Of a DNA stretch of 64,000 nucleotides, positions 57,048 to 57,878 are shown piece after piece; the first letter of the stretch is position 1, and every line of letters begins with the position of its first letter. Position numbers and translations under genes: made by a program. The notes under the pieces were generated by a model that had not been told where the DNA came from, searched no databases, and saw nothing but the letters and a program-made list of their open reading frames with translations. The stretch comes from Escherichia coli (lineage in GTDB: Bacteria > Pseudomonadota > Gammaproteobacteria > Enterobacterales > Enterobacteriaceae): assembly GCF_046105845.1 (NCBI RefSeq), contig NZ_CP151004.1; one strand, written 5' to 3'.

Positions 57048-57878
57048 CTACGCGGAGCGAGACGCTGTCGCCCCTGCGCGTGGTGGCAGGACAAATGCCA
57101 CCAGCGCCGGGATGAGATAAATAAACCAGACGGCGACTTCGCTGACACTTGGCGCTTCCTGATAGCCAAAAATCCCTTCCATCAGCGTGCCAAACAGCGA
57201 GTGAGTTGACAGCACCGCGCTCATATCGAAGGCGATTTCCTGAAAGTGGTTCCACAATCCGGCTTCATGAAATGCGCGAATAGCACCAGCTGCCAGCCCT
57301 GCGGCGACGAAGAGAATAAACAGGCTGGTCCATTTAAAAAATGCACCAAGATTGAGGCGAATACCGCCCCAGTAGAGCAGGAAGCCGAGCACCACGGCTG
57401 TAGCAAGACCGAGCATTGCACCCAGCGGCGGCCAGATCCCGACATCTTGTTGAAATGCCGCCAGCAGGAAAAAGACCGACTCCAGCCCTTCCCTTGCAAC
57501 GGCAAAAAAGACCATCATCACCAGCGCCCAGCCATGATGATTTCCACGCTGCAATGCGCTATCGACTGCCTGTTCCAGTTGCACTTTGACGTTGCGCGAC
57601 ACTTTGCGCATCCAGAAAACCATCCAGGTAAGGATCACCACGGCGATCACCGCCACGATACCTTCAAACAGTTCCTGTTCTTTTTGCGGAAATTCGCCGG
57701 TGGTTTCGTTAATGAAGATACCCAAGCCCAGGCACAACGCAGCGGCAAGCAACACGCCAATCCACATCACACCAATCCATCGGCCTCGCTGGGTACGCTT
57801 AAGATAGCTGGCAATCAAACTGACAATCAGCGCGGCTTCAAGTCCTTCGCGCAACATAATGAGAAATGGAACAAACAT
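57048..57878 (-). CDS. efeU: Ferrous iron permease EfeU (FTR1 family), apparently intact
   Basis: Track ORF 57048-57887; start MFVPFLIMLREGLEAALIVSLIASYLKRTQRG at 57878; two REGLE-type motifs present (REGLEAAL and REGLESVF); uninterrupted 276 codons. Confidence 0.88.
   Translation of the reverse strand: MFVPFLIMLREGLEAALIVSLIASYLKRTQRGRWIGVMWIGVLLAAALCLGLGIFINETTGEFPQKEQELFEGIVAVIAVVILTWMVFWMRKVSRNVKVQLEQAVDSALQRGNHHGWALVMMVFFAVAREGLESVFFLLAAFQQDVGIWPPLGAMLGLATAVVLGFLLYWGGIRLNLGAFFKWTSLFILFVAAGLAAGAIRAFHEAGLWNHFQEIAFDMSAVLSTHSLFGTLMEGIFGYQEAPSVSEVAVWFIYLIPALVAFVLPPRAGATASRSA

Follow-up and report, generated by a model that had tools for sequence, protein, structure and literature searches.

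Intact efeU is the norm in Escherichia coli, and the pseudogene of K-12 stems from a 1-bp deletion in that lineage

The permease gene of the efeUOB ferrous-iron uptake system is uninterrupted in the window, the whole stretch of 64,000 nucleotides of Escherichia coli DNA that was analysed here. Across the species an intact efeU is the norm and, judged by how it is distributed, also the ancestral state, and the pseudogene of K-12 is a lineage-specific 1-bp deletion. We hold with high confidence that the operon in the window is the ordinary wild-type efeUOB of E. coli. It is probably functional in this strain, as far as transport and regulation can be judged from near-identity to known systems. 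The finding is correct but already known, as the K-12 frameshift and intact efeUOB operons elsewhere have been in print since 2006–2007, and its significance beyond correct annotation is small.

The gene, its start region and its two iron-permease motifs are located as follows.

57048..57878, minus strand: efeU coding sequence, 276 codons and a TAG stop, an uninterrupted gene for an FTR1-type inner-membrane iron permease
57880..57891, minus strand: Shine-Dalgarno-like purine-rich stretch AAGGGTGGGTGG, read from the sequence, ending 2 nt 5′ of the efeU ATG
57837..57851, minus strand: first REGLE (REXXE) motif of EfeU, residues 10–14
57480..57494, minus strand: second REGLE (REXXE) motif of EfeU, residues 129–133

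In the ORF listing, the minus-strand frame spans 57048..57887 if it is begun at an upstream GTG (57887). The ATG at 57878 is favoured as the start because the Shine-Dalgarno-like stretch precedes it, and the RefSeq start of efeU in PCN033, O157:H7 and UPEC_U013 is the same ATG. The first-pass annotation had claimed an uninterrupted ORF of 276 codons with both REGLE-type motifs intact. The ORF listing and the translation, which has no internal stop from this ATG, bear this out, and both motifs were located in the translation by a regular-expression search. A premature stop or the loss of a REGLE motif was sought by realignment with K-12 and in the translation, and efeU contains neither defect.

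EfeU matches the NCBIfam EfeU equivalog NF041756 over its full length with 331.4 bits (cutoff 255), TIGR00145 likewise over its full length with 349.4 bits (cutoff 303.8), and Pfam FTR1 (PF03239) with 299.7 bits over profile positions 1–283 of 284. A simple Kyte-Doolittle scan with a 19-residue window gives six hydropathy peaks of at least 1.6, at residues of about 1–24, 32–60, 68–94, 146–173, 177–204 and 242–270, and segment 115–142, which holds the second REGLE motif, peaks at 1.59 against this threshold of 1.6, a profile compatible with seven transmembrane helices. A PDB sequence search with EfeU returned no match at E ≤ 0.01. Public records already contain the exact 276-aa sequence, named EfeU, on 296 contigs, and its 90%-identity protein cluster also contains EfeU of Citrobacter.

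The two partner genes follow on the same strand in the order efeU, efeO, efeB, with gaps of 57 nt and 5 nt, the former equal to the efeU–efeO gap in K-12.

55863..56990, minus strand: efeO, 375 aa, periplasmic protein with cupredoxin-like and M75 imelysin domains
54586..55857, minus strand: efeB, 423 aa, DyP-type peroxidase/deferrochelatase

EfeO matches NCBIfam NF007697 with 772 bits over residues 1–375 of 375 and carries the Pfam domains Cupredoxin_1 and Peptidase_M75. EfeB matches TIGR01412 (‘tat_substr_1’) over its full length with 617 bits (cutoff 428) and carries Dyp_perox_N and Dyp_perox_C. Both genes had been called intact, and both are indeed end-to-end with their equivalog models. 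The Tat signal that had been noted on EfeB is likewise upheld by the twin-arginine motif SRRRLLK at residues 13–19, followed by a hydrophobic stretch and AHA-Q as read from the translation, together with the full-length TIGR01412 match; the match to Pfam TAT_signal is weak and sub-threshold (E = 0.034).

The lesion of K-12 was located by aligning the window gene with those of K-12 strain ER3413 and PCN033. RefSeq annotates the K-12 gene (ER3413_RS05295) as a ‘frameshifted’ pseudogene, and its alignment with the window gene has one gap only, of 1 bp, in column 106. The frameshift that the first-pass annotation had ascribed to K-12 is thus a 1-bp deletion in codon 36.

57772..57773, minus strand: GG, efeU nucleotides 106–107 in codon 36, intact in the window and a single G in K-12

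The K-12 frame ends in ...RWIV*, with the stop directly after the deletion, so that translation ends past residue 36, and the rest of K-12 EfeU is readable in another frame. When the missing G is restored, K-12 EfeU differs from the window EfeU only at residue 263. With GG at 57772–57773 and the single-G deletion absent, the window efeU stands outside the K-12-type pseudogene class.

The distribution of the two alleles was determined among 5,426 complete E. coli genomes, 5,417 of which have efeU. Full-gene megablast identity bands cannot split the alleles, and hence 40/41-mers centred on the K-12 deletion were used as probes, so chosen that no 28-nt word is common to both alleles; the census covers, within efeU, the K-12 deletion site only. 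The deletion allele is found in 367 genomes (6.8%). Among 60 rows sampled, its carriers are K-12 substrains, cloning hosts, laboratory-evolved lines, transconjugant recipients and O16:H48 isolates with genomes of 4.5–4.8 Mb, and among the matches listed nearly all are K-12 or laboratory derivatives. The intact allele occurs with the sequence of the window in 3,928 genomes and with a neighbouring SNP, first met in efeU of UPEC_U013, in 1,024 more, so that GG is intact in at least 4,952 of the 5,426 (at least 91%). About 98 of the 5,417 efeU-positive genomes are assigned to neither allele, probably owing to other nearby SNPs. The first-pass annotation had presented efeU as unlike that of K-12. 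The difference itself stands, but it does not distinguish this strain, as E. coli in general has the intact gene as its wild type and K-12 departs from it.

It is extremely improbable that the intact frame arose from an error of assembly or sequencing, with a real frameshift, K-12-like or other, polished away. Single-base indel errors occur in some assemblies, and nothing specific points to one here. The site, however, is a GG dinucleotide with no long homopolymer, the same intact allele is present in at least 4,952 independent genomes, and 296 contigs encode exactly this 276-aa protein. Moreover, the 24 kb around the site do not resemble K-12, the nearest complete genomes being phylogroup D-like at 98.7% identity.

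Incidentally, those nearest complete E. coli genomes, a human isolate and O166:H15 strains, were found with positions 40000–64000 of the window. As they are only about 98.7% identical over the 24 kb, complete genomes include no close representative of the lineage of the window.

That efeUOB probably functions in this strain follows from three points: EfeU is one residue away from that of O157:H7, efeU is under purifying selection, and the 80 nt nearest the gene on the promoter side do not vary across strains. Compared with O157:H7, efeU has a dN/dS of 0.022, and compared with a B2 strain one of 0.045; the values for efeO and efeB are 0.03–0.06. These values indicate strong purifying selection on efeU and are typical, for the whole operon, of genes maintained by selection. 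The one residue is V263 near the C-terminus of EfeU, a conservative difference from O157:H7 and K-12 (A263) that belongs to the protein found on the 296 public contigs.

An operon that is intact in sequence could nevertheless be silent or inactive in this lineage, through a missense change or through an AT-rich island upstream, and we consider this improbable. For the missense version there are several residue differences between the window and the reference strains, the candidates being V263 in EfeU, K234 and I327 in EfeO, and K4, N144, N411 and others in EfeB. However, each of these substitutions either is conservative or falls outside the motifs, EfeU of exactly this sequence is widespread, and dN/dS of 0.02–0.06 indicates that selection maintains the genes. 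The island version holds that a 2.55-kb segment alters the promoter context, for example by H-NS silencing that spreads from a stretch of 30–36% GC, and it has in its favour that homology to K-12 stops 128 nt 5′ of the ATG, just where the AT-rich segment starts. Against it, O157:H7, whose efeUOB was reported to be functional (Cao 2007, as cited in later papers), has the same island with the same junction. A functional operon thus remains the preferred reading. The features upstream of the gene are these.

57879..58006, minus strand: conserved promoter-proximal block of efeU, 128 nt, 98% identical to K-12 by blastn of the putP–efeU spacers
57938..57956, minus strand: predicted Fur box CGTAATGATAATCGCTATC, 60–78 nt 5′ of the ATG, matching 15 of 19 positions of the consensus GATAATGATAATCATTATC
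57916..57930, plus-strand reading: candidate CpxR box GCAAA-N5-GTAAA, 38–52 nt 5′ of the efeU ATG

By spacer blastn and a five-strain alignment, homology to K-12 ends upstream of this block, and the last 80 nt 5′ of the ATG do not vary among five strains of different lineages (K-12, PCN033, O157:H7, UPEC_U013 and the window). The Fur-box-like site that had been noted upstream of efeU is confirmed at 57938..57956, as a scan of both strands of the 64-kb window, about 128,000 positions in all, gave this as the single best site and no other as good. A search for the pattern GCAAA-N5-GTAAA gave 2 matches in the 64 kb, where 0.46 would be expected, and the one at 57916–57930 fits the CpxR consensus. 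Published work agrees with both assignments, as efeUOB belongs to the direct Fur regulon (PMC7157518) and CpxR regulates efeU negatively (PMC9600279, PMC3852070). A scan of the conserved 128 nt for the sigma-70 consensus gave no promoter-grade match, and the −35 and −10 elements are left unassigned.

Two further observations concern this region. The dinucleotide directly 5′ of the Fur box (57957–57958) is AT in the window and UPEC_U013, GC in K-12, AC in PCN033 and AG in O157:H7, and the AT of the window prolongs the GATAAT-like periodicity of the Fur site. A 108-aa minus-strand ORF at 57890–58216 ends at the start of efeU and crosses the junction between the conserved block and the island; it is unannotated in related records and probably spurious.

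Upstream of position −128 of efeU, a lineage-variable segment of 2.55 kb replaces all sequence. The putP–efeU spacer has at least three forms, of 219 nt (B2 strain UPEC_U013), 542 nt (K-12) and 2,681 nt (the window at 57879–60559, PCN033 and O157:H7), all of which converge on the same efeU-proximal block of about 128 nt. The long form occurs in 643 of the 5,426 genomes, O157:H7 among them (about 92% identity). By blastn, nucleotides 135–208 of the K-12 spacer are a 72%-identical remnant of the right end of the island (island 2430–2503), and retention of this remnant points to a deletion rather than to an insertion. The surroundings of the island contain no flanking direct repeats or IS ends.

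Between efeU and a divergent ORF in the island, positions 58050–58950 form about 1 kb of non-coding DNA with 30–36% GC. In 57800–60700, 9 sigma-70-like sites were found against 4.8 expected. The non-coding stretch is a candidate for a divergent regulatory region bound by nucleoid proteins, and Rfam has no family match in 58050–58950. Elsewhere in the window, gathering-level Rfam matches lie at 696–864, 2725–3061, 24767–24816, 35383–35425, 45520–45611, 51212–51296 and 53183–53376, being in this order SraB, the rne 5′ UTR, the PyrC leader, ES036, ES056, a tRNA and Ysr251. The last, of an antisense-type sRNA family, sits about 1.2 kb past the end of efeB.

The divergent ORF is located as follows.

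59069..60412, plus strand: uncharacterised 447-aa ORF, divergent from efeU, within the long putP–efeU spacer

It is a ‘hypothetical protein’ in every record seen. A word-indexed search returned E. coli copies only, and a full HMMER scan added 47 remote relatives that share three C-terminal repeats of about 60 aa. Some of these bear SET or OTU domains, among them a methyltransferase of 1,451 aa with a SET domain that is encoded on a Salmonella IncFIB plasmid. A single-sequence AlphaFold model had a pLDDT of 32, and a model made with a 22-sequence alignment had a pLDDT of 93 in the repeat region, with three small helical modules. The repeats are predicted to be winged-helix/HTH-like, and they also occur in the SET-domain proteins on Salmonella plasmids. 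No match was found in NCBIfam or PADLOC, Pfam gave sub-threshold matches only (PipB2_N, E = 0.0086), Foldseek against the PDB gave nothing significant and a PDB profile search nothing, and a literature search by locus tag yielded nothing relevant.

The ORF evolves fast relative to its neighbours, with dN/dS of 0.28–0.47, well above theirs and below 1. Against O157:H7 its dN is 0.054 and its dN/dS 0.47, compared with dN/dS of 0.02 for efeU and 0.009 for putP, and its 47 residue differences occur over the entire length of the protein. We entertain, as a long shot, that the product is a DNA-binding factor whose target is the AT-rich divergent region of 1.2 kb that it shares with efeU, or else a secreted nucleomodulin-like protein with no link to efeU. 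In the latter case its repeats would relate it to SET-domain methyltransferases on Salmonella plasmids. If the DNA-binding version were true, the island lineages (this strain, PCN033 and O157:H7) would have gained a control of efeUOB that is absent in K-12 and B2. Either way, the ORF and the island are unrelated to whether efeU is intact.

The ordinary wild-type operon to which the evidence points would, on the published account of EfeUOB, work as follows. An intact FTR1-family permease in the inner membrane, with its two REXXE motifs presumably within transmembrane helices, would be the product of efeU; efeO would supply a periplasmic cupredoxin/imelysin protein, and efeB a DyP peroxidase exported by Tat. 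Transcription of efeU would be repressed by Fe2+-Fur at the box 60–78 nt 5′ of the ATG, and by CpxR at higher pH.

The literature is in line with this picture. That the frameshift leaves K-12 efeUOB non-functional, as the first-pass annotation had it, is stated in PMC7549933 and PMC2808357. These two papers also cite Grosse 2006 and Cao 2007 for the K-12 frameshift and for a functional operon in Nissle 1917 and O157:H7. Improved growth under iron restriction with an in-frame efeUOB operon is described in PMC7549933, PMC2808357 and PMC3852070. An intact efeUOB, in comparison with K-12, was likewise remarked for EAEC 042 (PMC2808357), and the authors of the PCN033 study had noted that its efeUOB is intact, unlike that of K-12 (PMC7549933). 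Deletion of efeOB from PCN033 did not reduce virulence (PMC7549933), and therefore an intact operon need not mean an important phenotype.

In practice, the strain is to be scored as efeUOB-positive: as in almost all E. coli other than K-12, ferrous iron can probably be taken up at low pH by this route. It is K-12 that is the atypical reference, as iron-uptake phenotypes and models based on it lack the EfeUOB transporter.

Among named systems, the permease family to which EfeU belongs includes yeast Ftr1p, and the window protein has a full-length FTR1 domain (PF03239) with two REXXE motifs. Yeast Ftr1p partners the multicopper oxidase Fet3p, whereas the partners of EfeU in the window are EfeO (cupredoxin/imelysin) and EfeB (DyP peroxidase). 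EfeU of E. coli Nissle 1917 is of the same family and has the same intact 276-aa architecture. According to PMC2808357 and PMC4746246, this protein (YcdN) was the first bacterial Ftr1p homologue to be characterised (Grosse 2006, Mol Microbiol 62:120).

Within E. coli, the efeU gene closest to that of the window among complete genomes is that of the porcine ExPEC strain PCN033, with 99.6% nucleotide identity. Its EfeU has 2 differences (I78V and V263A) and its EfeB 7, and it shares the island with the 447-aa ORF. UPEC_U013, the one representative of the B2 group in this comparison, is also 2 residues away in EfeU, and its putP–efeU spacer is short (219 nt), without the island. The K-12 pseudogene is 98.7% identical to the window gene in nucleotides, with the promoter block, efeO and efeB the same, but its putP–efeU spacer is 542 nt as against 2,681 nt.

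The O157:H7 operon, described as functional in PMC7549933 and PMC3852070, which cite Cao 2007 (Mol Microbiol 65:857), was compared in strain F7386, which is not the strain of Cao 2007. Gene order and spacing are the same as in the window, A263 for V263 is the sole difference in EfeU, and EfeO and EfeB are 2 and 6 residues apart, respectively. The two also have the same promoter-proximal 128 nt with the same Fur box, and the same 2.5-kb island, about 92% identical, between putP and efeU.
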